Part shown: positions 8,571 to 32,000 of the stretch, piece after piece
Layout: each line of letters starts with the position of its first letter
Position numbering within the stretch: the stretch's first letter is position 1
From: Methanocella conradii HZ254
Lineage (GTDB): Archaea; Halobacteriota; Methanocellia; Methanocellales; Methanocellaceae
DNA length: 32,000 bases
Assembly (NCBI RefSeq): GCF_000251105.1
Contig: NC_017034.1
Location: 1,540,746 to 1,572,745 of the forward strand
Direction: 5' to 3'
Program-made: the position numbers and the translations under genes
The notes under the pieces: generated by a model
Told to the model about the DNA's origin: nothing
The model's input: the letters and a program-made list of their open reading frames with translations, nothing else
The model's database searches: none

Positions 8571-10970
8571 ATGAAATTCAGAGGCTGGCTTCTGGACGTA
8601 GATTATGTTGTAGAGAATGGCAAGCCTATTATCCGGATGTGGTGCGTGGACGATTCTGGTAAGAGCGCCGTGATCTTTGATGACTCTTTCGAGCCTTACT
8701 TTTACGTCGTGCCTTATGGTGACGTCCCCATAAGCGTGCTGGAAAACATGTCTGAGGAGGTGGGCGGGGAGACCGTGAGGCCTGTCCGCGTTGACATCGT
8801 GGACCGCAAGAACTTTGGCGTGCCTATCAAGTGCTATCGGGTTTTCACGAAGCTGCCCCGCGACGTGCCTTATTTGAGGGAGCTTGCCCTGAAGTTTGGG
8901 GACGTCCGTGAGGCTGATATCCTGTTTGGGGTACGCTATATTATCGATAGAAGGCTTATTCCTATGGGGGGGATTGAGGCGGAAGGCGAGCCTGTCTCCG
9001 TGGACTATGCAGGACTGGGGATGCTATGCCACAATCCCAAGGCCTTTGCTAGGGAGGACGAGCCGCCCCTAAAAGTGATGGCGTTCGACTGTGAGATGTG
9101 GAATCCACGGGGCATGCCCGACGCCGCGGAAGACCCGATAATCATCATCTCCATCAAGACAAACAGGGAGGAAAAAGTCCTCACGGCCACAGATGAGGAC
9201 GATAAGGGCCTGATAAAGGAATTCATAAGGTATATTCGAGATTATGATCCTGATGTTATAGTGGGGTATAATCAGGATAGCTTTGACTGGCCGTATATAA
9301 ATGAGCGGGCCAAGAAGCATAAGATAAAGCTGAGCGTGTGCAGGGACGGCAGCACTCCCATGTTTGGGCGGGGAGGCCTTCAGAAGAAAGTAAAGCTTGT
9401 GGGGCGGCTCAACATCGACCTTTTTCAGGCGGCCCAGAGGGACATGGACGGCGTAAAGGTAAAGACGCTCGAAAACGTGGCCGACTACCTGGGAGTGATG
9501 AATAAGGAGAAGCGTACCTACATCCCCGGAGGTGAAATCTATAGATACTGGGCTGACAGCAAAAGGCGAGACATCCTGATAAGGTATTCGAAGGACGACG
9601 TGGAGAGCACGTATGGGATAGCGGGGGAGCTGCTGCCGCTCCAGTTCGAGTTCGCCAGGATGGCACACGAGCCCGCCGACAACGTCTCAAGGATGGGCCG
9701 CGGCAGGCAGGTCGAGGCGTACCTCGCATACGTTGCCTATGAGTACGGCGAGCTCATCCCCTCGAAAGGAGGAGAGGTTGAAACGTATGTTGGAGGCTTC
9801 GTGTTTCCGCCTGTGAAGGGGATACACAGGAACGTTGCAGCCCTCGACTTCTCAGCCATGTACCCCTCCATAATGATCGCGTATAACATATCCCCTGATA
9901 CGGTTTGTAAGGATTGTAAGGATGACTGCTATCCGCCCGCCCCTGAGGTGGGCCATTGCTTCAAGAAGGCCCCGGAAGGCTTCTTCACGCGCATCCTGAG
10001 GTCTCTGGTGGCTCACCGCGCCGCCCTCAAGAAGAAGCTCGCCCAGACGGACAGGAAGGACAAGAGCTACCGGATGCTCGATATACGGCAAAAAACGATC
10101 AAGATATTGACGAACGCCTTTTATGGCTATACGGGCTGGGCGCAGGCCAAGTGGTACCGCCGCGAGTGCGCCGAGGCCACGTCGGCATGGGGCCGATACT
10201 TCATAAAGAGGGCCAGCGAAATCGCGCAGTCGATGGGCATGGAGGTCCTGTATGGCGATACTGACTCGCTATTCGTAAAGCTCAAGGATGGCGGCGACCT
10301 CCATGCGGCTACGGGCGAGTTCATCAGAAAAGTCAAGGAAGAATTGCCCCTGGACATGGATGTGGACAACTTTTATAGGGTCATCTTTTTCACCGAGGCA
10401 AAAAAGCGGTATGCTGGCCTCACGAGCAAAGGTGAGATAGTAGTCAGGGGCCTGGAGGTGCGCAGGGGCGACTGGTGTGAGCTCGCCAAAGAGCTGCAGT
10501 CACAGGTCATCCGCATCATACTTGAAGAGGAGGACCCGGAGAAGGCCGTGAAGTTCGTCAAGGATACCATTAGCGAGGTTAGGGAAGGCAAGGTGCAGCT
10601 CGATAAGCTCGTCATCCACAAAACGCTTACCAAGGGCTTCGAGAGCTATGAGAGCGTGCAGGCGCACGTTAAGGCCGCGGAGCGGGCGCGTGAGCTGGAG
10701 CTTTCGGCGGCGGTTGGCAGCAAGATCAGCTACGTCATCGTGAAAGGCCCCGGCATAACGCTAGGCGACCGCGCATACCCCGTGGACATGTTTATCAAGT
10801 TCGAGAACGGCAAGCTGTACGCGAAGGATAAGGCATACGAGCTCGACGTGGACTATTATATAGATAAACAGATAATACCCACGGCTTTACGGATACTTGG
10901 CTATTTTGGCTATACTGAGGATGAGCTTAAAGGCAGGGGCGTCCAGGGCACGCTCGCCCAGTTTTTCTAG
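8571..10970 (+). CDS. polB: Family-B DNA polymerase (archaeal PolB)
   Basis: 799-aa ORF. Exonuclease motifs: FDCEM (Exo I), GYNQDSFDWPY (Exo II), YSKDDVESTY (Exo III). Polymerase motifs: DFSAMYPSIM (A), KILTNAFYGY (B), YGDTDS (C). The length leaves no room for an intein. Confidence 0.95.
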   Translation: MKFRGWLLDVDYVVENGKPIIRMWCVDDSGKSAVIFDDSFEPYFYVVPYGDVPISVLENMSEEVGGETVRPVRVDIVDRKNFGVPIKCYRVFTKLPRDVPYLRELALKFGDVREADILFGVRYIIDRRLIPMGGIEAEGEPVSVDYAGLGMLCHNPKAFAREDEPPLKVMAFDCEMWNPRGMPDAAEDPIIIISIKTNREEKVLTATDEDDKGLIKEFIRYIRDYDPDVIVGYNQDSFDWPYINERAKKHKIKLSVCRDGSTPMFGRGGLQKKVKLVGRLNIDLFQAAQRDMDGVKVKTLENVADYLGVMNKEKRTYIPGGEIYRYWADSKRRDILIRYSKDDVESTYGIAGELLPLQFEFARMAHEPADNVSRMGRGRQVEAYLAYVAYEYGELIPSKGGEVETYVGGFVFPPVKGIHRNVAALDFSAMYPSIMIAYNISPDTVCKDCKDDCYPPAPEVGHCFKKAPEGFFTRILRSLVAHRAALKKKLAQTDRKDKSYRMLDIRQKTIKILTNAFYGYTGWAQAKWYRRECAEATSAWGRYFIKRASEIAQSMGMEVLYGDTDSLFVKLKDGGDLHAATGEFIRKVKEELPLDMDVDNFYRVIFFTEAKKRYAGLTSKGEIVVRGLEVRRGDWCELAKELQSQVIRIILEEEDPEKAVKFVKDTISEVREGKVQLDKLVIHKTLTKGFESYESVQAHVKAAERARELELSAAVGSKISYVIVKGPGITLGDRAYPVDMFIKFENGKLYAKDKAYELDVDYYIDKQIIPTALRILGYFGYTEDELKGRGVQGTLAQFF

Positions 10971-11029: not shown

Positions 11030-12142
11030 ATGGGAGAGAAATGCTTCTCGCTGTCCGAGCGTATCAAGATACTGTCGGCGGGCACTAAGTACGATAGCTG
11101 CAACCAGACCGTCGTGTGCCATACCTTTACGCCAGATGGGCGCTGTATTCAGCTTTATAAGACTCTGATGACCAACCGGTGTCTGGGCGAGTGCCTCTAC
11201 TGCCCCAACAGGTGTGGCCGTGAAGTCGCCCGCACGTCGCTGGCTCCCGATGAGATCGCCCGCATCACCTGGGACCTCTACCGCCGCAACGCTATCGAGG
11301 GGTTGTTCTTATCATCCGGGATCGTCGGCGACCCTGAAAAGACCACGCAAAAACAGCTAGAAGTGCTCAAGCTGCTCCGCGGCCAGGGGTTCAAGGGCTA
11401 CATACACGTCCGCCTCATGCCCGGCATACCCAGGGACATGCTCAGGGAAGTCTCGCTATATGCCAACAAGTTTGGCGTGAACGCCGAGACGACCTGCGAG
11501 TCCAGGTACGATGAGATATGCCCCAACTTTGACTATAGGAATGATATCCTTGATAGGCTTAAGTGGACCCACGAGTTCGTGCTCAAGAGGAGAAAGGAGG
11601 TACACTATGGGGAGGGGATTGTGGGCGCGAATGATACCCAGTTTGTGGTGGGCGCATCTGGAGAGCCTGACAAAGAGATCATTCACACAATCGACCGCTT
11701 TAAGGCGGACTATGGGCTGCGTAGGCCTTACTTCATGAGCTTCGACCCGGTGCCAGGGACGCCCCTCTCTTCGAATAGGCCATCGCCGGTGTGGCGTGAG
11801 GCCAGGCTGTACCAGGTCTCTTATTTGCTAAAGGATTACGGCCTCAGGGCTAAAGACCTCGATATTATACTGGATGATAAAGGGTTTCTGCCCGACGAGG
11901 ACCCAAAGCTATTGCTGGCCCATCATAACAGGGATATTTTCCCTGTAGACGTGAACGAAGCCCCATATGAAGACCTGATAAAGGTCCCGGGCATCGGTCC
12001 CGCAACGGCCCATCGCATCATCGCCAGCCGCCCCATAGAGGGCTACGCTGAGCTGGCAAGCATCGGCGTCGTCCTGAAGAGGGCACGGCCCTTCATAAAA
12101 GTAAAAAGCAGGCTACAAACGAGGCTGGAGGCGTTCGCGTGA
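11030..12142 (+). CDS. Radical SAM protein of the putative DNA modification/repair type, with a C-terminal helix-hairpin-helix
   Basis: The ORF track opens at TTG 11012. I prefer the in-frame ATG at 11030 (MGEKCFSLSERIKILSAGTKYDSC...) because TATA-like CATTATATAG at about 10997-11006 sits about 25-30 bp upstream. The radical SAM cluster motif is CLGECLYC (C-x3-C-x2-C). The C-terminal HhH is IKVPGIGPATAHRII. The N-terminal K-IL--A-KYD-SC pattern matches my memory of the TIGR03916-type family. Confidence 0.75.
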   Translation: MGEKCFSLSERIKILSAGTKYDSCNQTVVCHTFTPDGRCIQLYKTLMTNRCLGECLYCPNRCGREVARTSLAPDEIARITWDLYRRNAIEGLFLSSGIVGDPEKTTQKQLEVLKLLRGQGFKGYIHVRLMPGIPRDMLREVSLYANKFGVNAETTCESRYDEICPNFDYRNDILDRLKWTHEFVLKRRKEVHYGEGIVGANDTQFVVGASGEPDKEIIHTIDRFKADYGLRRPYFMSFDPVPGTPLSSNRPSPVWREARLYQVSYLLKDYGLRAKDLDIILDDKGFLPDEDPKLLLAHHNRDIFPVDVNEAPYEDLIKVPGIGPATAHRIIASRPIEGYAELASIGVVLKRARPFIKVKSRLQTRLEAFA

Positions 12143-12975
12143 TAATCGGGTATAAAAAGGACGTCGACGGCGTATTAAGGGCGGCGATAGCGCTCAATAG
12201 GAACCCCGACGCCATCATGGTATGCGGTGCGAGCGCAAGAGAGCTCAAAGAAAAGCTCGCAATGTACGACGGCGAAGTCGTTCTTAACGTCGATGAGGTC
12301 GTCAAGGACGTGCCCTTCCACGTGAAGGCCGAGCTATGGGTAAAGTTTCCATCCTGTAGCCCTATGCAGCGCTCATTATCGCTGGGCTCTTACCTGACTT
12401 TTGCGCTGCGTAACCATAATTGCGTCCCTGACGAGCTGGTAAGGCTGATGGCCCGCTACTACCCAAAATTAACGGCTATACTCGCCCATAAGGATGAGAC
12501 CGCCAGGAAATACTTCAAGTATTACAGGGAAACGATGGGCGAGCTTGAGCGATTGAAGGCACACGTCAGGTTCAGGCCTTCAGGAGACATGCTCTACGCA
12601 GAGATAAGCCCACAGCATGACGTAAAAGACCTTTTCATGGAGTGGGCGATGCGGAGGACTCCGGATAAGGTCATTGTTATTGGATGCCACTCAGAGCATT
12701 ACATATTGAATGCCAGGGCCCTCGGCTATAGCGAGGATATCGCCTGTGTCACGGCAGAAGAGGCGGCGCGCCTTCTGGGCACAGCTCCCGACTCTGATAG
12801 CGAGGTCTGGGACACGTACTATGACAGCCAGGCGATTGAGAATCGACGAAATAAGAGATACGCGAAGGGAAGGCTGCCCGCCAAATACTCATACATCAGC
12901 CCCGAGATTAGAAAAGAGAGAAAGAAGATAGAGCATGGCATATCAAATGATAAACTAGGCGACTATTTTACTTAA
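12139..12975 (+). CDS. Partner protein of the radical SAM enzyme (DUF4130 / probable DNA-metabolism protein type)
   Basis: 278-aa ORF. Its GTG start overlaps the radical SAM stop (GTGA), so the two are translationally coupled. Size and obligatory pairing with the upstream radical SAM fit the TIGR03915/DUF4130 family. I cannot verify sequence motifs from memory. Confidence 0.6.
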   Translation: MIIGYKKDVDGVLRAAIALNRNPDAIMVCGASARELKEKLAMYDGEVVLNVDEVVKDVPFHVKAELWVKFPSCSPMQRSLSLGSYLTFALRNHNCVPDELVRLMARYYPKLTAILAHKDETARKYFKYYRETMGELERLKAHVRFRPSGDMLYAEISPQHDVKDLFMEWAMRRTPDKVIVIGCHSEHYILNARALGYSEDIACVTAEEAARLLGTAPDSDSEVWDTYYDSQAIENRRNKRYAKGRLPAKYSYISPEIRKERKKIEHGISNDKLGDYFT

Positions 12976-13031
12976 GTTTAAAAAACTTTATATCTATGAA
13001 ATGAAAACAAGGCTTTTTACTTATATATTGA

Positions 13032-13039
13032 TTTATATA
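13032..13039 (+). promoter_or_regulatory. Consensus archaeal TATA box (TTTATATA) positioned to start transcription at the first unit of repeat array A
   Basis: TTTATATA at 13032-13039, preceded by a T5 run at 13014-13018 (GGCTTTTTAC) that could terminate the upstream DUF4130 gene. A TSS about 25 bp downstream would fall at about 13058-13064, where the array begins. Sequence-only prediction. Confidence 0.35.
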
Positions 13040-13056
13040 ACGTATAACATATGATT

Positions 13057-13759
13057 CACCACGGAGGTTCACAGAGGTCACAGAGAGGATTTTCACCACG
13101 GAGGTTCACAGAGGTCACAGAGAGGATTTTCACCACGGAGGTTCACAGAGGTCACAGAGAGGATTTTCACCACGGAGGTTCACAGAGGTCACAGAGAGGA
13201 TTTTCACCACGGAGGTTCACAGAGGTCACAGAGAGGATTTTCACCACGGAGGTTCACAGAGGTCACAGAGAGGATTTTCACCACGGAGGTTCACAGAGGT
13301 CACAGAGAGGATTTTCACCACGGAGGTTCACAGAGGTCACAGAGAGGATTTTCACCACGGAGGTTCACAGAGGTCACAGAGAGGATTTTCACCACGGAGG
13401 TTCACAGAGGTCACAGAGAGGATTTTCACCACGGAGGTTCACAGAGGTCACAGAGAGGATTTTCACCACGGAGGTTCACAGAGGTCACAGAGAGGATTTT
13501 CACCACGGAGGTTCACAGAGGTCACAGAGAGGATTTTCACCACGGAGGTTCACAGAGGTCACAGAGAGGATTTTCACCACGGAGGTTCACAGAGGTCACA
13601 GAGAGGATTTTCACCACGGAGGTTCACAGAGGTCACAGAGAGGATTTTCACCACGGAGGTTCACAGAGGTCACAGAGAGGATTTTCACCACGGAGGTTCA
13701 CAGAGGTCACAGAGAGGATTTTCACCACGGAGGTTCACAGAGGTCACAGAGAGGATTTT
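13057..13759 (+). repeat. Tandem repeat array A: 19 apparently perfect copies of a 37-bp unit (CACCACGGAGGTTCACAGAGGTCACAGAGAGGATTTT)
   Basis: 703 bp = 19 x 37. On reading through, every copy looks identical. There are no spacers. The 242-aa ORF 13051-13779 is the three-frame translation of this repeat, giving a 37-aa peptide periodicity. Confidence 0.97.
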
Positions 13760-13768
13760 GTTTCCTAA

Positions 13769-13802
13769 AGGGGGGCTAGTCGCCCCCCTCGGAGACCCCC
13801 TC
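13769..13802. other. GC hairpin (GGGGGGC-TAGTC-GCCCCCC) plus GAGACCCCCTC box, inner flank of array A
   Basis: The 7-bp perfect stem 13770-13776 / 13882-13888 is written here in error; the stem is 13770-13776 paired with 13782-13788, extended by an A:T pair (13769/13789). It is preceded by GATTTTGTTTCC and mirrored on the other side of the core (13894-13921). It could act as a terminator for plus-sense transcripts. Confidence 0.6.
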
Positions 13803-13893
13803 AATCTTCAATAGGTCAATCATCCGATATACAATTATTTAGTATAATATGGAAGACTCATAATACAAAAGAATCTCATTTAATAGGTAGAAG

Positions 13894-13921
13894 GAGGGTC
13901 TCTCAGGGGGCGAAGCCCCCT
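13894..13921. other. GAGGGTCTC box plus GC hairpin (GGGGGC-GAA-GCCCCC), inner flank of array B; mirror image of 13769-13802
   Basis: 6-bp perfect stem 13906-13911 / 13915-13920, plus A:T (13905/13921). The reverse complement reads GGGGGCTTCGCCCCCTGAGAGACCCTC, against GGGGGGCTAGTCGCCCCCCTCGGAGACCCCCTC on the left side. Confidence 0.6.
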
Positions 13922-13934
13922 TGAGTAATAAATT

Positions 13935-14176
13935 CCTCTGTGGTCTCTGTGGACCTCTGTGGTGAATATAACCTCTGTGGTCTCTGTGGACCTCTGTGGT
14001 GAATATAACCTCTGTGGTCTCTGTGGACCTCTGTGGTGAATATAACCTCTGTGGTCTCTGTGGACCTCTGTGGTGAATATAACCTCTGTGGTCTCTGTGG
14101 ACCTCTGTGGTGAATATAACCTCTGTGGTCTCTGTGGACCTCTGTGGTGAATATAACCTCTGTGGTCTCTGTGGTG
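13935..14176 (-). repeat. Tandem repeat array B: 6 perfect copies plus one partial copy of a related 37-bp unit (plus strand CCTCTGTGGTCTCTGTGGACCTCTGTGGTGAATATAA), inverted relative to array A
   Basis: Six identical 37-bp units span 13935-14156, followed by a truncated copy to about 14176. The reverse complement, rotated (TTCACCACAGAGGTCCACAGAGACCACAGAGGTTATA), matches the array A unit (TTCACCACGGAGGTTCACAGAGGTCACAGAGAGGATT) at 29 of 37 positions in my hand alignment. Confidence 0.97.
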
Positions 14177-14181
14177 CTTGA

Positions 14182-15078
14182 TTAAGCGTGGTAGTATTCG
14201 CCGCTGGCAGCGCGCTGGGCGGGCGACAAGGACTCCTCCCTACCGGGGATACCACACGCATCGGCACGGCACTGCTTACAAAGCCTAAACTGAGGAAGGT
14301 ACTTCTCGGCAATCGCGCGGGCCTCCTCAAGGTCCTTACACTCGGGCGGCTTCACGTCCTTAAACTTATAGAGGGGTATCATGGGGATGATATTCATCAA
14401 AATAGCACCCCTGGCGGCTGCCTCTTTAGCTATCTTCTCAATCTGATCAGCGTTGACGCCAGGCACGAGCACTGTGTTCACCTTCACGATAAGGCCGGCC
14501 TTAGCCGCTAACTCGACTCCCTTAAACTGATTATCCCTTAATATTCTCGCGCCTTCCACTCCCCTATAGGTCTGGTTATGATACCTCACCCACGAGTATA
14601 TCTTAGCTCCCACCTCAGGGTCGAAAGCATTAATTGTGACCGTAACGCTTGAAACGCCTACATCTACGAGGTCATCGATACGCTCCGGGAGCATAAGTCC
14701 GTTAGAGGCGATACACTTGATAAGCTCGGGGTGCCTCTCGTGTACGATTTTTAGGGTTTCGAAGGTCTCCTCGTTCGCGAGAGCTTCGCCAGGGCCGGCG
14801 ATGCCGACCACCCTGAGGTTACCGCCAAGCTCCTTCAGGGCCTCGTCAACCCTATCAGCGGCCTGCTGAGGCTTCATGACGCCCGAAGACACGCCGGGGC
14901 GATGCTCACACTTATCTATCTTACGATTACAAAAGTTACATTGAATATTGCATTTCGGCGCGACGGGCAGGTGGATCCTGGCCGTGGAGAAATGGGCTTT
15001 CTCGTTAAAGCACGGGTGCGCCGAGGTCATGTGGGAGAACTTGGACCTCCCGCCATCGAACACTTTCAGCTCTTCCAT
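14182..15078 (-). CDS. nifB: Minimal (radical-SAM-domain-only) NifB-type protein
   Basis: 298-aa ORF. HPCFNEKAHFSTARIHLPVAPKCNIQCNFCNRKIDKCEHRPGV is the characteristic NifB N-terminal radical SAM region. The C-terminal CKQCRADACG matches the NifB K-cluster Cys motif. There is no NifX-like extension and no other nif genes in the window. Confidence 0.85.
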   Translation of the reverse strand: MEELKVFDGGRSKFSHMTSAHPCFNEKAHFSTARIHLPVAPKCNIQCNFCNRKIDKCEHRPGVSSGVMKPQQAADRVDEALKELGGNLRVVGIAGPGEALANEETFETLKIVHERHPELIKCIASNGLMLPERIDDLVDVGVSSVTVTINAFDPEVGAKIYSWVRYHNQTYRGVEGARILRDNQFKGVELAAKAGLIVKVNTVLVPGVNADQIEKIAKEAAARGAILMNIIPMIPLYKFKDVKPPECKDLEEARAIAEKYLPQFRLCKQCRADACGIPGREESLSPAQRAASGEYYHA

Positions 15079-16587: not shown

Positions 16588-17481
16588 TCAAACGCATTTG
16601 GTGAGCATGAAATCGGCGAGCGCTTTGCTCTTCTCGACGCTCGTCATAAGGGTGTCAAAGCGGGCAACCTCGAAGTCATAGCCAGAGAGATCCGTAGTAT
16701 CGCGCTCGTCGATGATAAGGACGTCAACGATGTCCTTATAGAACTCGGCCACGCCCCTTGTAGACGGCTCAAGCCCTTTCGCCTTCATGAGCTTTGCAGC
16801 GGGGCCGCTGACGGGCTTATCACCTATGAAAGGACTAACTGCAACGACGAATTTAATTTGCAGAGTCTCACGGACACCCTCCAGGGCCAAAATTGGGCCT
16901 ATACTTGTGATGGGATTGCTGGGGCCTATGAAAATGTTATCAGAGGCATTCAAGGCCTCCATGACCTCGGGCGTGGGAACCAGATCACCAAAAAGCTTAA
17001 CTGAGATGACTTCCGGCTCGCCCCGCATGCCAACCCAAAAGTCCTGGAAGTGAAAGTCGCCATCAGGCGTGCATATCACGGAGGCTATGTCATTCTCGCT
17101 CATTGGGAGCACAATGGTCTTTATCTGAAAAACGTCACAAAGCTCCCTCGTGGCATCCGTCAAGGAGTTACCGTTTTTTAGAAGCTCAGTTCGAAGGATA
17201 TGAGTCGCACGGTCCTTATCCCCAATCATTATCTCCTCAAAGTGCCCCATCGCCTCAAGCGCCTTAAAAGTGTTAAACGTGTCACCTTTAATGCCCCACC
17301 ACTTCTCATCATCTATGACGCCGGCAATTGTATAGATTACCGAGTCGATGTCTGGCGTCACCTTGTTTCCGGATATCCACACGTCCTCGGCAGTGTTCAC
17401 GATAACGGCTATGTCTTCGCTATCCTTGAAGCCCCTCAGCAATTTCGGGGTGCCCGTGCCCCCTGACAGAATGGATAACAT
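16588..17481 (-). CDS. cofD: 2-phospho-L-lactate transferase (F420 biosynthesis)
   Basis: 297-aa ORF beginning MLSILSGGTGTPKLLRGF, the signature CofD N-terminus. Length and overall pattern are typical. Confidence 0.9.
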   Translation of the reverse strand: MLSILSGGTGTPKLLRGFKDSEDIAVIVNTAEDVWISGNKVTPDIDSVIYTIAGVIDDEKWWGIKGDTFNTFKALEAMGHFEEIMIGDKDRATHILRTELLKNGNSLTDATRELCDVFQIKTIVLPMSENDIASVICTPDGDFHFQDFWVGMRGEPEVISVKLFGDLVPTPEVMEALNASDNIFIGPSNPITSIGPILALEGVRETLQIKFVVAVSPFIGDKPVSGPAAKLMKAKGLEPSTRGVAEFYKDIVDVLIIDERDTTDLSGYDFEVARFDTLMTSVEKSKALADFMLTKCV

Positions 17482-17563
17482 GGCTATCGCTGTATCATAT
17501 GCGGCACATCATTATAAGGCTTTCAGGAAAGACAGGTTTATCATTAGCGCCGCCTACTATGTA

Positions 17564-27117: not shown

Positions 27118-30100
27118 TTAACCCATTTTTCCTAGCAGTTCATAGTAGAGGACGATTACGTCATCAAAGTCCATCCTCGAGTTGTGGTTGAAATCGAAGG
27201 GCGAAAGCCCAACGTTTGCATTGCCCGCCATCCACTCCATACTCTTATAGTAAGCGACGACGTCGTCGAAGTCGAGCCTACCGTTACCATTGATATCCTC
27301 TACGAGGCCATCATCGTCAAGGTCAACGGGCATATTCGAGTAGCCCGGAAACACCTCAACGTAAGGCTTCAACACTATGTACCCGGCCATCGTTTTTGTA
27401 TCGCTCGAATGCTCGTTGGCCACCGCGAGGGAAACGGTATACCTGCCCGGAGCCCTGTACGCATGCGTCGGGTTTTTGAGCGCTGAAGTATCGTTATCGC
27501 CAAAGCTCCAGCTCCACGAGGATGGGCCCGGGTCTCCAGTCGTGAGGTCGACGAAACTAATATTAATCGGCATTAATGGCCCCACCGTACCGCTCGTCGT
27601 GCTCGCCGTGAAATTCGCCATAAGAGGCGTAAACACGGTCAGGCCCCCGTCTAGCGGTGCGCACTCAACAGCCGAGCCATTATCATCATCAAGGTGAGCG
27701 CCATCTATCAGAACGCTCGTCCAGCCTGGCACGTCGCCTCTCACCGTCAACGTCGCAAGCGTAATGTTCGAAGCGCCTGGCCCGACTTGCCCTTCAAGGT
27801 CGACGCCGCTTATCCTCACGGAATCGCCTGGCAGCGCTGTAGTATTATTCAACAAGGCCCATGACGGGTAGCTCACTCCGACGATTTCGCCAACGCTCGA
27901 ATTGACAAGGGACACGTTTAACGAGTAACCCGCGAGCCCTGAACGCGCGTTATCCAGCACGATTTTCACCTCCGTAGTGTTGCCCACCGCCGAGGCCGTA
28001 GAGACTGGCAACATCGACACATTAGCCGGGTTATAGTATTCTAGCACAAGGATGGCGTTACACGCTTCTATCCATCCGCCATCGCTCCTGATCGCCATCT
28101 CATTCCCCGTTGCATTCAACATGCCGCTAACATCAACGTCGCTCACGGATATCTCAGAATCGCCCATATAGACCCATGGGTGATACCATGAATGGCCGTT
28201 AAAGTACATCACACCCTCGCCTCCCGCCCCCGTAGGGCTGCTTATAAGCCTTGCCCCGGCAAGCTTGGCTACATCGATCGCCGTGCCAGTAAACGGCACA
28301 TATGAAGTCGCAAACTCCGGGCTCGAGCCGTAATCCCCATTGCCGCAAAGCATGTCAAACTCCTCGTTCATGAATATCTTTTTCCTCGTGGCGTTTGAGT
28401 TCTCGTATATTACATACAGTATCATGCCGCGGGGGCTTATCCGCTTATCCGAGGGTTTTGTGAAGACTGCATGGTTCTCAGTAGTATTGTACACGCCTGT
28501 CACGTTGTATACGAACATGCCATAGGGCAGGTCGAAATCGCCCCACATTTTCCTATCAGTGTAATGGGCCTCATAAGGTATGGTCACGCCGTTGAAAGTC
28601 ATGGTCGAGCTCTCGGGCACGAACCCATCCTTATCCCAGCACCATGGTAGATACAGGTAAGCAGCGACTACCCTGCTGCCAGGGGGCAGCGGCAAATCAT
28701 TCGCCGTCCAGTTCGCCGTGTAGTTTGCCCACCAGTTCTCCCCGCTCTTATACTGGCTATCTCCAATAGAGTAAATGATATCGCCGCGCACGTCGATGAT
28801 GCGTCTGGTTAGCAGGTCGCTCCCCCCAGAATATCGCTTGCCCATATACCCATTATTAATCACGGCCTTCGTCATCGCCTTAACGTTGTTCGTCTCATCG
28901 GCTTCATCGATAATGTTGTCCGGGTCAACCGTTACCATAGCTTCGGACTGTTCGCCGCTCACATGGATTGTGGGGTCTTGTACTTTTAGCCTGCCCGTGC
29001 CAATGGCTGGCGTTGTCGCGCCCATTGCGAGGCCATCAATGTGTACGGTGTGATTAATCCCATTCAGGGTGACTGTCACGTTGAACGGCCCTGCATCAGC
29101 GTAGCCTATATTCTGAATGACGAACCACAGCGAGTTCGTGGTGCAATTTGCGAAGTAGTACCCTGTGGCGTATCCCATAGACTGTACGCTTAAATCCGGC
29201 GCTACTGAGGAAGCGAGAATATAATCTGACTTTATTGTACTATTAGACATTGTGGCATTGGATATCGTTAGATTGACAGTATAGACGCCTGGCTCCGCAT
29301 ACGTATAGACTGGATTTTGTTCGGTGCTATCGATGGTCCCATCGTTGTCGAAGTCCCAAGCCCAGGAAGTTGGAGCTCCACTTGATTCGTCCGTAAACCT
29401 TACGGTTAATGGAGCGAGGCCACGCGTAACATTAGCCGAAAAACCGGCCACAAGCGGACTGGAATCGAGCACAGTGATAGTTAGACTACGATCAGATGTA
29501 AAATTATCCCATTGACCATCGTAATTTTTACAGGCTGTCACAACTGGATGATATACTCCTGGAACTGTATAAGTGTAAATAGGATATCCCTCTGTGCTAT
29601 CAATGATACCATCGTCATTAAAATCCCAATAATAATAATCCGGAATTGTTTGCATCATGTGATATGAAAATTGAACTGTTAGCGGGTTAAATCCTTCACT
29701 TATATTAACCTTCGGGTCTAGATAAATAGGGGTCACACGCCGAATATAATTTTCTTTTATAATTGTATTGCTTGATGTATTATTATATATAGTTAATTGT
29801 ACTTTATAATATCCGTTTCTCCAAACTAAGTATGAAGGATTTTGTTCATATAACCTTGTAGAAGCACTACTAGGGTCTTTAATTTTCCATTCCCATCGAA
29901 TTGGATTTCCAGAGGACAGATCAGTAAAATGAACGGTTTGAGTACCTATACATAGTCTTTTGTCTACCGTGAAGTCTGCTATGAGCTCGGTGGTTTGGGC
30001 CTTTACGTATGCCGTTTTTGTTTCTGTGTCTGTACCGTTTTTATTTGCTACAGTCAGGCTTACAGTATATGTGCCAGGGTTATTATACGTATAGATCGGA

Positions 30101-31269
30101 TTTTGTTCGGTGCTATCGATGGTCCCATCGTTGTCGAAGTCCCAAGCCCAGGATGTAGCCGCTGTGGACTGGTCGGTAAACTGCACTGTTAGCGGTACTG
30201 TCCCTATAGTCGTATTTGCCATAAAGTCTGCTACTGGCATTACTAATGGCTCCTGGATGGTGAGGAATGCCAGGGGTATCTTAAACGACATGGCATAGCC
30301 GCTGCCCGCAAGGTCTCTATGATAGCCTAGCGTGTAAATAGAGCCACCCGTAATGCTATTGGTCACATCCCACGTCTGCACACCAGAGTAGTCGCCTTGC
30401 ACGTCATAGCCATGTGGAAGAGGGTTCTGGTACGTCTGGGTACTCTGATCGAATCCCGCTGTCGGGAAAGAGTAATACCCATTCAGGCTAGACATGTACG
30501 CGACGGTAAGCCTAGCAGACCCCACCCTGGAAACTTCGCGAGCGTCAAACTCGGTTTCGCCAACGTAGATTTCACCAGAGTCCTCCGCATATTTTGAGGC
30601 GACATCGTGGCCTTGGTTAACCCAGTAATGGACGACTTTTTCCGAGCCGTCATTATACGCTACGACGAGCGCTATCTCCTTGACCCTTCCGTCAAAGCTT
30701 GGATTCACCTTTTGAGTAAGCACATGTACCCTTAAATGGGTCGAATTTATCAGCGAGGTCACATCATACCACATGAAATAGTCGCTGGTCACCCTGTTTA
30801 AGTGGTCGTTTATTATGACTGGACCGGTACCCCCCTGGCCCGGGAAAGAATAAGGCACGTTTAGGTCCTCAAACCATTCATAGTCGTAGATGCCATCGCC
30901 GTTCACGTCTAGCTGGGTGGTGATGTTACCCTGGTAGTTGTTTTGCATGTGTCCGCAGTAGGTTGAAACGTAAAGCCTGGCCCATTGAATGCTCGTATAC
31001 TCGGGTAATGTGAAATCCTTGATTACGTCTTGTGTTCCCCATGTTGGAGGGGTTGCATCCACGTATAGCCCGCCCGACACAGAGCCGTTCTGGACGTTCG
31101 TCAGGGGGATGCCGCCCACGTAACTGTCAGCCATCGCCGTCATTGGCGAGATCATAAAAATAAATAAAATGGTTAGAACGCAATACAGCACCTTGGCATC
31201 TCCAAAAAGCCCTAAGATACCTCTAGAAACGTTTGAAACACTATCATTTAATTGGGATTGGATAACCAT
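27118..31269 (-). CDS. Large secreted mosaic surface protein: signal/anchor, DUF3344-like, 4 PKD, CARDB, second DUF3344-like, cohesin-like, PKD, dockerin-like tail
   Basis: The ORF track opens at 31422, but the first 51 codons lie in a ~20% GC promoter-like tract. The ATG at 31269 gives MVIQSQ...VLYCVLTILFIFMISPMTAMA, a signal peptide. PKD signatures appear as WDFDNDGTIDSTEQNP(I/V)YTY (twice), WDFNDDGIIDSTEGYPIYTY and WSFGDNDTSALKNPTHAY. CARDB is suggested by APDLSV...VTVDPDNIIDEADETNN. The C-terminal EF-hand-like duplicated DINGNGRLDFDDV / FDFNHNSRMDFDDV marks a dockerin. Domain names are from memory. Confidence 0.85.
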   Translation of the reverse strand: MVIQSQLNDSVSNVSRGILGLFGDAKVLYCVLTILFIFMISPMTAMADSYVGGIPLTNVQNGSVSGGLYVDATPPTWGTQDVIKDFTLPEYTSIQWARLYVSTYCGHMQNNYQGNITTQLDVNGDGIYDYEWFEDLNVPYSFPGQGGTGPVIINDHLNRVTSDYFMWYDVTSLINSTHLRVHVLTQKVNPSFDGRVKEIALVVAYNDGSEKVVHYWVNQGHDVASKYAEDSGEIYVGETEFDAREVSRVGSARLTVAYMSSLNGYYSFPTAGFDQSTQTYQNPLPHGYDVQGDYSGVQTWDVTNSITGGSIYTLGYHRDLAGSGYAMSFKIPLAFLTIQEPLVMPVADFMANTTIGTVPLTVQFTDQSTAATSWAWDFDNDGTIDSTEQNPIYTYNNPGTYTVSLTVANKNGTDTETKTAYVKAQTTELIADFTVDKRLCIGTQTVHFTDLSSGNPIRWEWKIKDPSSASTRLYEQNPSYLVWRNGYYKVQLTIYNNTSSNTIIKENYIRRVTPIYLDPKVNISEGFNPLTVQFSYHMMQTIPDYYYWDFNDDGIIDSTEGYPIYTYTVPGVYHPVVTACKNYDGQWDNFTSDRSLTITVLDSSPLVAGFSANVTRGLAPLTVRFTDESSGAPTSWAWDFDNDGTIDSTEQNPVYTYAEPGVYTVNLTISNATMSNSTIKSDYILASSVAPDLSVQSMGYATGYYFANCTTNSLWFVIQNIGYADAGPFNVTVTLNGINHTVHIDGLAMGATTPAIGTGRLKVQDPTIHVSGEQSEAMVTVDPDNIIDEADETNNVKAMTKAVINNGYMGKRYSGGSDLLTRRIIDVRGDIIYSIGDSQYKSGENWWANYTANWTANDLPLPPGSRVVAAYLYLPWCWDKDGFVPESSTMTFNGVTIPYEAHYTDRKMWGDFDLPYGMFVYNVTGVYNTTENHAVFTKPSDKRISPRGMILYVIYENSNATRKKIFMNEEFDMLCGNGDYGSSPEFATSYVPFTGTAIDVAKLAGARLISSPTGAGGEGVMYFNGHSWYHPWVYMGDSEISVSDVDVSGMLNATGNEMAIRSDGGWIEACNAILVLEYYNPANVSMLPVSTASAVGNTTEVKIVLDNARSGLAGYSLNVSLVNSSVGEIVGVSYPSWALLNNTTALPGDSVRISGVDLEGQVGPGASNITLATLTVRGDVPGWTSVLIDGAHLDDDNGSAVECAPLDGGLTVFTPLMANFTASTTSGTVGPLMPINISFVDLTTGDPGPSSWSWSFGDNDTSALKNPTHAYRAPGRYTVSLAVANEHSSDTKTMAGYIVLKPYVEVFPGYSNMPVDLDDDGLVEDINGNGRLDFDDVVAYYKSMEWMAGNANVGLSPFDFNHNSRMDFDDVIVLYYELLGKMG

Positions 31270-31436
31270 AATACCACCTGCAATATAGGCATTAATATAT
31301 ACATAACATGACTTAAATCTTACTACGATATTAAAAAAATAATGCAAACAATAATACATAAAAATATTATTAACATCTGTAATGTTAAGAAATTTTAAAA
31401 AGTTATGAATTGATAACACCATAATAAGATAAATAA

Positions 31437-31460
31437 TTTGCCCCCCATATAGGGGGCAAA
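31437..31460 (-). terminator. Perfect 9-bp hairpin (TTTGCCCCC-CATATA-GGGGGCAAA) downstream of the 31472 gene, in T-rich context on the minus strand
   Basis: The stem 31437-31445 / 31452-31460 begins 11 nt after the stop codon of the upstream minus-strand gene. TTATTTATCTTATT follows on the minus strand. Confidence 0.6.
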
Positions 31461-31471
31461 AAATCTTTTAA

Positions 31472-32000
31472 TCAGGGGTCATGTACCTCCAATATCGCTA
31501 GCGGTATCTTGAATGTCGTATTATACCCCGTGTTGATACTATAATCCCTCTGATAGTGGAACGTGATATCATTGGTCTTGATATTCAAATTACTGACATT
31601 GCTCGTAATGTCCCAAGTCTTCACCCCAGCATATCTTCCCTGTATATCATACCCTTTTTCTAATTTAATTGAGGTATCAGGGTCATAGTTCCCTCCAACG
31701 GTTAGATTATAGTACCCATTGGCGCTCGCCAGGTATATCGACGTTAGCTCAACTGAACGAATGTCATGGTCATCGGGGATGATCGAGGTGCTGAAAGTCG
31801 TATTGCCCATAAACGGTGGGTTACCCGTCATATCCTCGTAAGTCTTTGAGCAAACATCGTGGCCCTGATTAACCCAGTAGTACGTCGTATTACCGCCAGT
31901 GGTGTTGTAGGCGACGATGAGGACTATATCCTTGATACGCCCGTCGAATTTATTGGCGGAAGGAGGGTTATAGGTCCCATCATCGACTCTCTGAGTCGTC
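31472..32000 (-). CDS. DUF3344-like surface protein paralogue, C-terminal part (gene runs off the right window edge)
   Basis: The ORF track lists 31472-31831 from an internal Met. The frame stays open to position 32000. Hand translation gives ...FDGRIKDIVLIVAYNTTGGNTTYYWVNQGHDVCSKTYEDMTGNPPF..., which parallels FDGRVKEIALVVAYNDGSEKVVHYWVNQGHDVASKYAEDSGEIY in the neighbouring large protein. The C-terminal FKIPLAILEVHDP parallels FKIPLAFLTIQEP. Confidence 0.8.
   Translation of the reverse strand, partial: TTQRVDDGTYNPPSANKFDGRIKDIVLIVAYNTTGGNTTYYWVNQGHDVCSKTYEDMTGNPPFMGNTTFSTSIIPDDHDIRSVELTSIYLASANGYYNLTVGGNYDPDTSIKLEKGYDIQGRYAGVKTWDITSNVSNLNIKTNDITFHYQRDYSINTGYNTTFKIPLAILEVHDP

Follow-up and report, generated by a model that had tools for sequence, protein, structure and literature searches.

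Inverted 37-bp repeat arrays between converging operons of Methanocella conradii HZ254 as the probable amplified arms of a dispersed intergenic palindrome

Within a 32,000-nt stretch of Methanocella conradii HZ254 (contig NC_017034.1; the whole stretch is referred to here as the window), two non-coding arrays of 37-bp units face one another across mirrored GC hairpins and an AT-rich core, which raises the question of what kind of element this is and how arrays that are each internally perfect came to differ from one another in unit sequence. An earlier note, made from the sequence alone, had proposed a repetitive non-coding RNA or 3′ untranslated region (3′ UTR) platform, a protein-binding array or an origin-like element. 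The locus is best explained as a member of a dispersed family of palindromic, non-coding repeats that occupy intergenic sites in Methanocella. It is probably an element resembling repetitive extragenic palindromic (REP) sequences or miniature inverted-repeat transposable elements (MITEs), located at the junction of converging operons, with arms that were tandemly amplified in the HZ254 lineage. Its parts and the adjoining genes are as follows, in window coordinates.

8571–10970: polB, in the left operon, followed by the gene for a radical-SAM/HhH protein and then by the DUF4130 gene
12139–12975, plus strand: DUF4130 gene (Pfam PF13566), the last gene of the polB / radical-SAM-HhH / DUF4130 operon
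12976–13054, plus strand: AT-rich 79-nt spacer from the stop codon to array A, with a T5 tract and TATA-like strings
13055–13759, plus strand: array A, 19.05 perfect copies of TTCACCACGGAGGTTCACAGAGGTCACAGAGAGGATT
13770–13788: left GC hairpin, GGGGGGC-TAGTC-GCCCCCC (local fold −25.8 kcal/mol, z −2.5)
13789–13802: left box, TCGGAGACCCCCTC, complementary to the right box in the palindrome alignment
13803–13892: AT-rich core, non-palindromic, 90 bp, 25.6 % GC
13893–13904: right box, GGAGGGTCTCTC, complementary to the left box
13906–13920: right GC hairpin, GGGGGC-GAA-GCCCCC
13935–14174, minus strand: array B, 6.49 perfect copies, the minus-strand unit reading TTCACCACAGAGGTCCACAGAGACCACAGAGGTTATA; the same module as in array A
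14182–15078, minus strand: radical-SAM (NifB-like) gene, which closes the cofD-apgM-radical-SAM operon and has its stop codon at a distance of 7 nt from array B; its protein matches that of M. conradii HZ254 at 100 % identity

Both arrays were recovered by Tandem Repeats Finder with a period of 37 and 100 % matches (array A, 19.1 copies, score 1410; array B, 6.5 copies, score 480), and a script confirmed perfect periodicity across both spans (19.05 and 6.49 copies). When unit A is compared with unit B, reverse-complemented and in its best-matching rotation, 8 of the 37 positions differ, and a degenerate unit pattern finds 25 matches in the window, all of them within the arrays, for an expectation of 0.00 in shuffled sequences. 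Each 37-mer consists of a TTCAC cap followed by three CAC-purine words, 10 and 9 bp apart, and then by a short linker rich in T or in A and T, GGATT(TT) or GTTATA; in array A the module is bracketed by GATT microhomology. The arrays run in opposite orientation around the mirrored GC hairpins and the AT-rich core, and each set of modules is located between the stop codon of its operon and a GC hairpin. The operons on both sides converge on the locus, and the element lies between two stop codons in an intergenic region of 1206 bp. The inverted pair of internally perfect arrays, the 8/37 difference, the mirrored hairpins and boxes and the large-scale palindromic layout had all been described in the earlier note, the observations of which were borne out in every detail, with a core that does contain about 26 % GC, its length being corrected from 91 to 90 bp; the interpretation survived only in part.

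The origin of the arrays is illuminated by a sister strain of M. conradii (assembly GCA_030019315.1, contig L124, with a second contig, L125; both are short-read assemblies). The gene order in L124 is that of HZ254, the flanks are 98.7–99.4 % identical and the intergenic region measures 353 bp. The leader, hairpins, boxes and core are shared with HZ254, with a single substitution in the 79-nt spacer and a left hairpin that keeps its stem and has a different loop (TTC), and between them they frame one unit A and 1.5 units B, identical in sequence to the HZ254 units; L125 likewise holds 1.5 B units. Since the sister allele carries the same two unit types, the 8/37 differences between the arms predate the expansion, and the perfection of the arrays reflects recency, not homogenisation. 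The arrays thus appear to be young expansions that grew in place and independently of one another, as opposed to homogenised or transposed blocks. Of the earlier suggestion that each arm had been homogenised or expanded independently, the independent expansion is upheld by the sister allele and the homogenisation is not. Both arm modules would have been amplified in place in the HZ254 lineage, from 1 to 19 and from 1.5 to 6.5 units, the likely route being replication slippage or unequal recombination in a 37-bp register, and the additional units most probably form a variable-number repeat that is neutral or under weak selection, and not a dedicated device.

The exact HZ254 copy numbers (19 and 6.5) come solely from the 2012 reference assembly. 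Contigs from other HZ254 runs end exactly 30 nt (k−1) into array A (L131) and into array B (L121–L123), the pattern of a repeated 31-mer cycle, which indicates more than one unit in independent data. The k=31 contig L125 of the sister strain, on the other hand, passes through B unbroken, which argues for a difference between strains and not a habit of the assembler.

In the sister strain the element takes its basic form, an imperfect palindrome of about 250 bp consisting of module, GC hairpin, box, AT-rich core, box′, GC hairpin′ and module′. For either strand of this one-copy allele, folding predicts a single hairpin of about 240 nt with the core as its loop (z −9.3 and −9.4); units of array A taken by themselves show no structure (z +1.6 and +1.2). 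Related elements are found elsewhere in the genus. Contig L126 (GCA_902810565.1 lineage) uses the word CACAAGG and bears two modules on one of its arms at a distance of 37 bp, Methanocella sp. CWC-04 (L133) holds two elements with CACAAAG-type words that are about 90 % alike by eye, and L134 has an inverted pair with CGCAGAG words. All five Methanocella elements (L126, the two L133 loci, L134 and the window) lie between convergent genes. The layout described in the earlier note is kept in part of the genus, as a palindrome in L124 and L125 and as inverted pairs in L126, L133 and L134, whereas in L132, L134, L140 and L142 nothing more than a simple GC hairpin and a T tract comes after the orthologous radical-SAM gene, so that the element is dispensable and its distribution patchy. 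Furthermore, the 96.8 % identity between HZ254 and L126 ends at window position 14170 (L126 10909), within the last partial unit of array B, and past this point L126 has an H+-pyrophosphatase gene in place of the polB operon. Because identity stops inside array B, the repeat element marks a within-species rearrangement breakpoint.

The sites with a hairpin and a T tract (L132 10925–10975, L134 10905–10935, L140 3893–3915 and L142 3900–3945) are of some interest in themselves, as a GC hairpin with a T tract after the radical-SAM gene looks like a bacterial-type intrinsic terminator, which would be unusual in an archaeon.

Array A had already been catalogued. In 'Satellites in the prokaryote world', Subirana & Messeguer (2019, BMC Evol Biol 19:181; PMC6749651) reported a dispersed family, Fam_27_37_5, in M. 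conradii, the supplement listing a perfect, non-coding array of 18 units of TTCACCACGGAGGTTCACAGAGGTCACAGAGAGGATT at NC_017034.1:1553798–1554464; unit, coordinates, perfection, non-coding status and a period that is not a multiple of 3 identify it as the same object as array A. The family comprises at least six HZ254 arrays with units of 31–37 bp, each with its own unit variant. The related arrays are located at 1012743 and 1189260 (35 bp × 4), 1420999 (31 bp × 7), 1428993 (37 bp × 7) and 1772547 (37 bp × 10), and all are internally perfect except the 31-bp array, which is 93 % similar; M. arvoryzae also has related arrays, at 108822, 1363475 and 2409198 (PMC6749651). Dispersal of the 37-mers over unrelated loci, one part of what the earlier note had associated with a generic minisatellite, is thus found. 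Array B, the inverted pairing, the hairpins, the core and transcription do not feature in the 2019 paper (PMC6749651), which proposes 'satellite transposition' and claims that no family is common to Archaea and Bacteria. The occurrence of different unit variants at different loci is easier to reconcile with local amplification of modules already present than with arrays that transpose, and the sister-strain allele likewise argues for the expansion of single modules in place. The published idea is accordingly corrected to one of growth in place from modules that were already there.

HZ254 also contains satellites that are unrelated to this family (PMC6749651 supplement), namely two perfect arrays of identical size, TCATGCCATAAAATAACATGG at 588154–588763 and AGCGCTCCGCGCGGTTACTAG at 1722946–1723555 (each 21 bp × 29 = 610 bp), and a perfect 61 bp × 12 array at 2199352–2200084. 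These sizes reflect either a general tendency to perfect tandem expansion or array lengths fixed during assembly finishing.

The position of the arrays relative to transcripts may be judged from Logan contigs of runs SRR6014204-10, which are operon-sized and start about 40 nt upstream of polB or cofD. Such transcript-like contigs enter the arrays, reaching 109 nt beyond the stop codon of DUF4130 on one side and 37 nt beyond that of the radical-SAM gene on the other: the polB operon was assembled as one contig in both L130 and L131, the latter crossing the spacer into array A, and L121–L123 extend from the radical-SAM gene through 30 nt of array B. A strand-specific RNA-seq study of M. conradii exists (2017 GEO entry; PMC6046458), and if SRR6014204-10 are RNA-seq runs, both arrays are transcribed in the CACAGAG sense as 3′ UTR. 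The 3′-UTR idea of the earlier note thereby gains indirect support, and the arrays would occupy the 3′ untranslated extensions of both operons, ahead of the GC hairpins. In its basic form the element probably works in the manner of REP sequences, bacterial interspersed mosaic elements (BIMEs) or MITE-type repeats, via structure in transcript 3′ regions or in DNA, and as a spacer on the 3′ side it would stabilise or insulate transcripts and promote rearrangement.

The locus is non-coding, as had been assumed. The two open reading frames (ORFs) over the arrays contain no Pfam domain and the 242-aa ORF over array A has no homologue among 5.8 billion proteins, which excluded a coding reading; moreover, the period of 37 is not a multiple of 3, and in the sister strain the 242-aa ORF shrinks to one unit. 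No Rfam family was matched by the window at the gathering threshold, by the locus at an E-value of up to 10 or by 18 bacterial loci, the leftovers being chance microRNA and C/D-box matches far below threshold and one tRNA. A scan for tRNA and tmRNA gave none, a scan for bacterial-type terminators was also empty, promoter-like matches stayed at chance level, and GC skew merely tracks gene orientation. BLAST of the one-copy element against plasmids and phages yielded no match. A metagenome scan with a 20-mer of the core had a sole match (L136), which proved to be unrelated coding sequence. A conjectural 41-aa partial ORF across the core, used as a query for transcript contigs covering it, was not on record. 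Literature searches for CACAGAG-type strings returned just primers and eukaryotic matches. A CsrA sponge, a Shine–Dalgarno sponge, DnaA boxes, parS, matS, MC1 sites and MraZ boxes were considered and dropped, as their motifs do not fit.

The words that make up the module are not confined to Methanocella. The pattern CACNGAGGNNCACAGAGNNCACAGAG was scanned over 185,579 species genomes; it represents a single word pattern, all counts are lower bounds, and about one match is expected by chance (20 specified bases, random sequence, uniform base composition). CACAGAG-type blocks occur at at least 120 loci in at least about 65 genomes. The matches listed include Alpha-, Beta- and Gammaproteobacteria, Acidobacteriota, Planctomycetota, Verrucomicrobiota, Bacteroidota, Gemmatimonadota, Chloroflexota, Geobacterales, Firmicutes, Actinomycetes, Spirochaetia and Thermoplasmata. 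Among these matches, 93 of 129 blocks are made of four words, the words recur every 9 bp (219 intervals) or every 10 bp (140 intervals), and an inverted partner lies within 150 bp downstream in 79 of 129 and upstream in 3, which is the polarity of A followed by B. In the same matches the arms of a pair are 82 % alike on average, compared with 70 % for random partners, and are rarely perfect; the words of paired arms are more conserved than the hairpin, and TTCAC is the second commonest 5′ flank of the bacterial blocks, after ATGGC. The same genomes hold other CAC/CGC-purine words (CACGAAA, CACGAAC, CGCAGAG and CACGGAA), and in two Geomonas species (L024 and L072) a block is identical at seemingly orthologous sites with different flanks. 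A search of viral contigs gave one match to the word pattern, which suggests that the block is not a phage feature.

The bacterial blocks, too, have been noticed before, as the 'nonanucleotide repeats' of Geobacter (Geomonas) bemidjiensis (consensus TTT[WCCTCTGTGR0-1Y0-1]nGTGAG, Gbem_R9001-R9068; Aklujkar et al. 2010, PMC2996986, Table S6). With array A in the 2019 catalogue (PMC6749651) and the word block in this table, the view that the locus is not a described element has to be abandoned. The 68 annotated copies occupy 42 intergenic regions, of which 28 are co-directional, 11 convergent and 3 divergent, and several co-directional copies lie inside operons (nuo, pdh, hemCD and aroCK; PMC2996986), a distribution that, on this tabulation, amounts to the 3′-side bias typical of REP elements. 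The G. bemidjiensis repeats have the word CCTCTGTG / CACAGAGG and the 9–10-bp period in common with the window units, their cap, CTCAC, differs from TTCAC by one mismatch, and an A/T tract adjoins both (GGATTTT in the window). Like the HZ254 family they are intergenic, multi-copy and mostly 3′ of genes, often with two features per intergenic region. They differ in being single blocks of few words in a bacterial host, many of them inside operons, with no tandem 37-bp modules, and no function was assigned there either (PMC2996986). The capped block of about four words (YTCAC + [CACAGAGGN]n) could tentatively be regarded as one cross-domain element class read by a widely conserved factor or process, although we consider this a long way from likely; candidate readers would be the transcription or RNA-decay machinery at 3′ regions, or a topoisomerase between transcription units. 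If one factor or process does read the words, the M. conradii arrays would be a naturally amplified, 19-fold recognition module and a ready bait.

More elaborate arrangements of such words are also found in bacteria. A Caulobacteraceae contig (L084, 4400–4900) carries six blocks in 500 bp, built from CACGAAAGG, CACGAACCA and the complements of both words; a conserved segment, gacggcgcctgcggcg, is interspersed between the blocks, and the whole forms a composite cluster of the same element class. In Geomonas propionica (L025), about four tandem copies of a unit of about 150 bp lie at 1120–1660, and at 2349–2420 a 9-word block with a period of 8 (ACGCAAAG / ACGCAGAG) stands between inverted CTTTGCG blocks; judged by its sequence, this contig appears to show word-level expansion in bacteria.

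Several points weigh against the interpretation of the locus as a REP/MITE-like palindrome with amplified arms in transcript 3′ regions. The RNA-seq nature of SRR6014204-10 is deduced from contig shape and the existence of GSE103596, and assemblies lose strand. Array B has no T tract of at least four, so that a reading as repeated archaeal terminators fits array A only. No clear gene-orientation bias was seen at the bacterial loci (at least 120), where home-made ORF calls are too crude to trust. The one-copy allele comes from short-read assemblies, and the simultaneous growth of both arms and of at least five other loci could mean selection or dedicated amplification, not neutral slippage. Mobility is suggested only by the patchy distribution and the dispersed copies, no transposase or REP-associated tyrosine transposase (RAYT) search having been made, and a function of the basic element has been shown in no organism.

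An alternative is that the arrays are a functional, copy-number-dependent platform, on which phased words, as 3′-UTR RNA or as DNA, titrate or load a specific factor, the HZ254 expansion being adaptive. Candidates for that factor are an RNA-binding protein, the 30S subunit via GGAGG/GAGG strings, a nucleoid protein, or gyrase acting between the convergent operons. Such a role is favoured by the recurrence of the heptamer word, the YTCAC cap and the four-word block size in a range of bacterial phyla as well as in two archaeal lineages, by the block that is identical at apparently orthologous sites in two Geomonas species despite different flanks, and by the growth, in a single strain, of both arms together with several further loci; among the matches listed, the polarity bias of 79 to 3 and the arms that are only 82 % alike, with words better conserved than the hairpin, point in the same direction. 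However, there is no known binding partner, a sister strain at about 99 % identity manages with just 1 and 1.5 units, the element is missing from the same site in other Methanocella lineages, and the words vary within the genus and even within a genome (CACAAGG, CACAAAG, CGCAGAG and CACGAAA). Many bacterial words also have no GAGG string, which argues that a Shine–Dalgarno mimic is not the conserved feature, and on balance an adaptive platform seems doubtful. It is less likely still that the copy numbers, and possibly the array lengths, are finishing artefacts of a 2012 short-read or 454 assembly and that the true locus is a one-copy palindrome or has another number of units. The perfect 705-bp arrays are longer than the reads of that era, 1 and 1.5 units are all that the remaining assemblies of the species contain, and it is odd that HZ254 also has two unrelated perfect arrays of identical size (21 bp × 29). 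Nevertheless, independent HZ254 contigs that stop exactly k−1 = 30 nt into each array need repeated 31-mers, and the sister-strain contig reads straight through. Artefactual copy numbers are, in any case, compatible with the REP/MITE-like reading of the locus.

A replication origin or centromere-like site, in which inverted arrays of initiator or segregation-protein sites would surround an AT-rich unwinding core, might be suspected from the inverted repeat arrays on either side of a core of 26 % GC and from the polB and topoisomerase VI genes in the window. Archaeal origins have origin recognition boxes (ORB or mini-ORB) beside an AT-rich element and usually lie next to orc1/cdc6. The 32 kb contain no orc1/cdc6 gene, and an ORB-like motif has 5 matches for 6.8 expected, none of them at the locus. 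Moreover, HZ254 has at least six family arrays and other Methanocella lineages have single-copy elements, the element is missing at the same site in other Methanocella, the sister allele has one copy, and the same blocks occur inside bacterial operons. The origin-like role raised in the earlier note is therefore very improbable. A processed repeat-RNA system is, in our estimation, more remote again, whether as a ToxI-like antitoxin array of a type III toxin–antitoxin system or as a CRISPR-like array without spacers. In ToxI antitoxin arrays, perfect direct repeats with a length of about 36 nt precede a hairpin, and a toxN/abiQ-type endoribonuclease gene comes directly after, and perfect 37-nt direct repeats followed by a GC hairpin do recall toxI. 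However, with the padloc library not run, no toxN/abiQ-like or cas ORF was seen after either array, where the core and then the opposite array come next; the units also lack a fold of their own, no Rfam match was obtained and the sister strain has a single A unit. Unlike ToxI, the arrays form an inverted pair and belong to a multi-copy dispersed family. CRISPR arrays have repeats with unique spacers between them, a leader and usually cas genes, whereas the present units run head-to-tail without spacers and the ORFs scanned contain no cas domains, in agreement with the earlier note, which had set a CRISPR aside.

A REP/MITE-like palindrome thus remains the preferred reading, and its closest parallels are found among bacterial extragenic repeats. 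The REP, BIME and REPIN elements of Proteobacteria are short, dispersed extragenic repeats, commonly present as inverted pairs able to form transcript hairpins. They are found preferentially on the 3′ side of genes and in the gaps between convergent ones, are scarce in divergent promoter regions, vary from strain to strain and act as rearrangement hot spots. The REP unit is an imperfect palindrome with a GTAG-type tag, it is mobilised by RAYT, a Y1 transposase whose gene lies in the same genome between copies of the repeat, and its sequences are species-specific; the sources are said to be Higgins (1982), Gilson (1984) and Bertels & Rainey (2011). The present element resembles them in forming extragenic inverted doublets biased to the 3′ side of genes. 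Unlike a REP unit, the array A units do not fold alone, and only paired arms do; the arm is a non-palindromic run of 9–10-bp words, and the word recurs across phyla. MITEs are defined by terminal inverted repeats, a target-site duplication and a parent transposon with matching ends. The locus has inverted arms, by eye there is no clear direct duplication at the ends of the L124 copy, and among the matches listed (at least 120 loci) nothing convincing was seen in the way of inverted blocks bounding a transposon-sized interval, nor did an inverted pair enclosing a transposase-sized interval stand out.

A further parallel is offered by the Borg elements of Methanoperedens, which contain perfect, recent and independently arising tandem repeats, some of them intergenic (Schoelmerich et al. 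2023, PMC9879509). Perfection, recency and a methane-cycle archaeon as host are common to both. The Borg repeats are extrachromosomal, pervasive and often within genes, where they make disordered protein regions, and they are not known to be built from a dispersed palindromic element or to form inverted pairs.

An ordinary explanation, a REP-like repeat with a recent expansion of its arms in one strain, would thus replace the origin-like element or non-coding RNA platform proposed before. Directly established are the anatomy, the strain-specific number of units, membership of the family, the lack of coding and the location between convergent genes. The arrays were already known as catalogue entries, as were dispersed palindromic repeats and variable-number tandem repeats as kinds. 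What is new is that the arrays are the amplified arms of a palindrome with hairpins, together with the evidence of in-place, strain-specific growth, the 3′-UTR position and the connection of an archaeal satellite family to the nonanucleotide-repeat blocks of bacteria. Three things are thereby joined: the archaeal satellite family of 2019, the Geobacter 'nonanucleotide repeats' table of 2010 and the blocks in at least about 65 genomes. As such arrays break short-read assemblies and mark a synteny breakpoint, they matter for assembling and comparing Methanocella genomes.

Some minor observations concern the neighbouring genes and the rest of the window. In one Methanocella metagenome-assembled genome, a 17-codon ORF, MCDTCEKHNPKKAKPKK, with a strong GGAGG ribosome-binding site (L137 3993–4046, also L139 1368–1421) lies about 95 nt downstream of the NifB-like radical-SAM gene, and from its sequence it may be a small Cys-containing peptide gene. 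At 17348–17563 of the window, the longest HD-domain ORF (470 aa, from 17348) overlaps the start of cofD (16588–17481, minus strand) by 134 nt; since the HD-domain gene of relatives encodes 396–398 aa, the true start is probably downstream and the overlap with cofD not real. Further along, a 1434-aa DUF3344 / PKD / CARDB surface-type protein is encoded at 27118–31422 (minus strand), and the GC content at 29001–30000 and 31001–32000 is about 42 %, compared with about 52 % elsewhere in the window.

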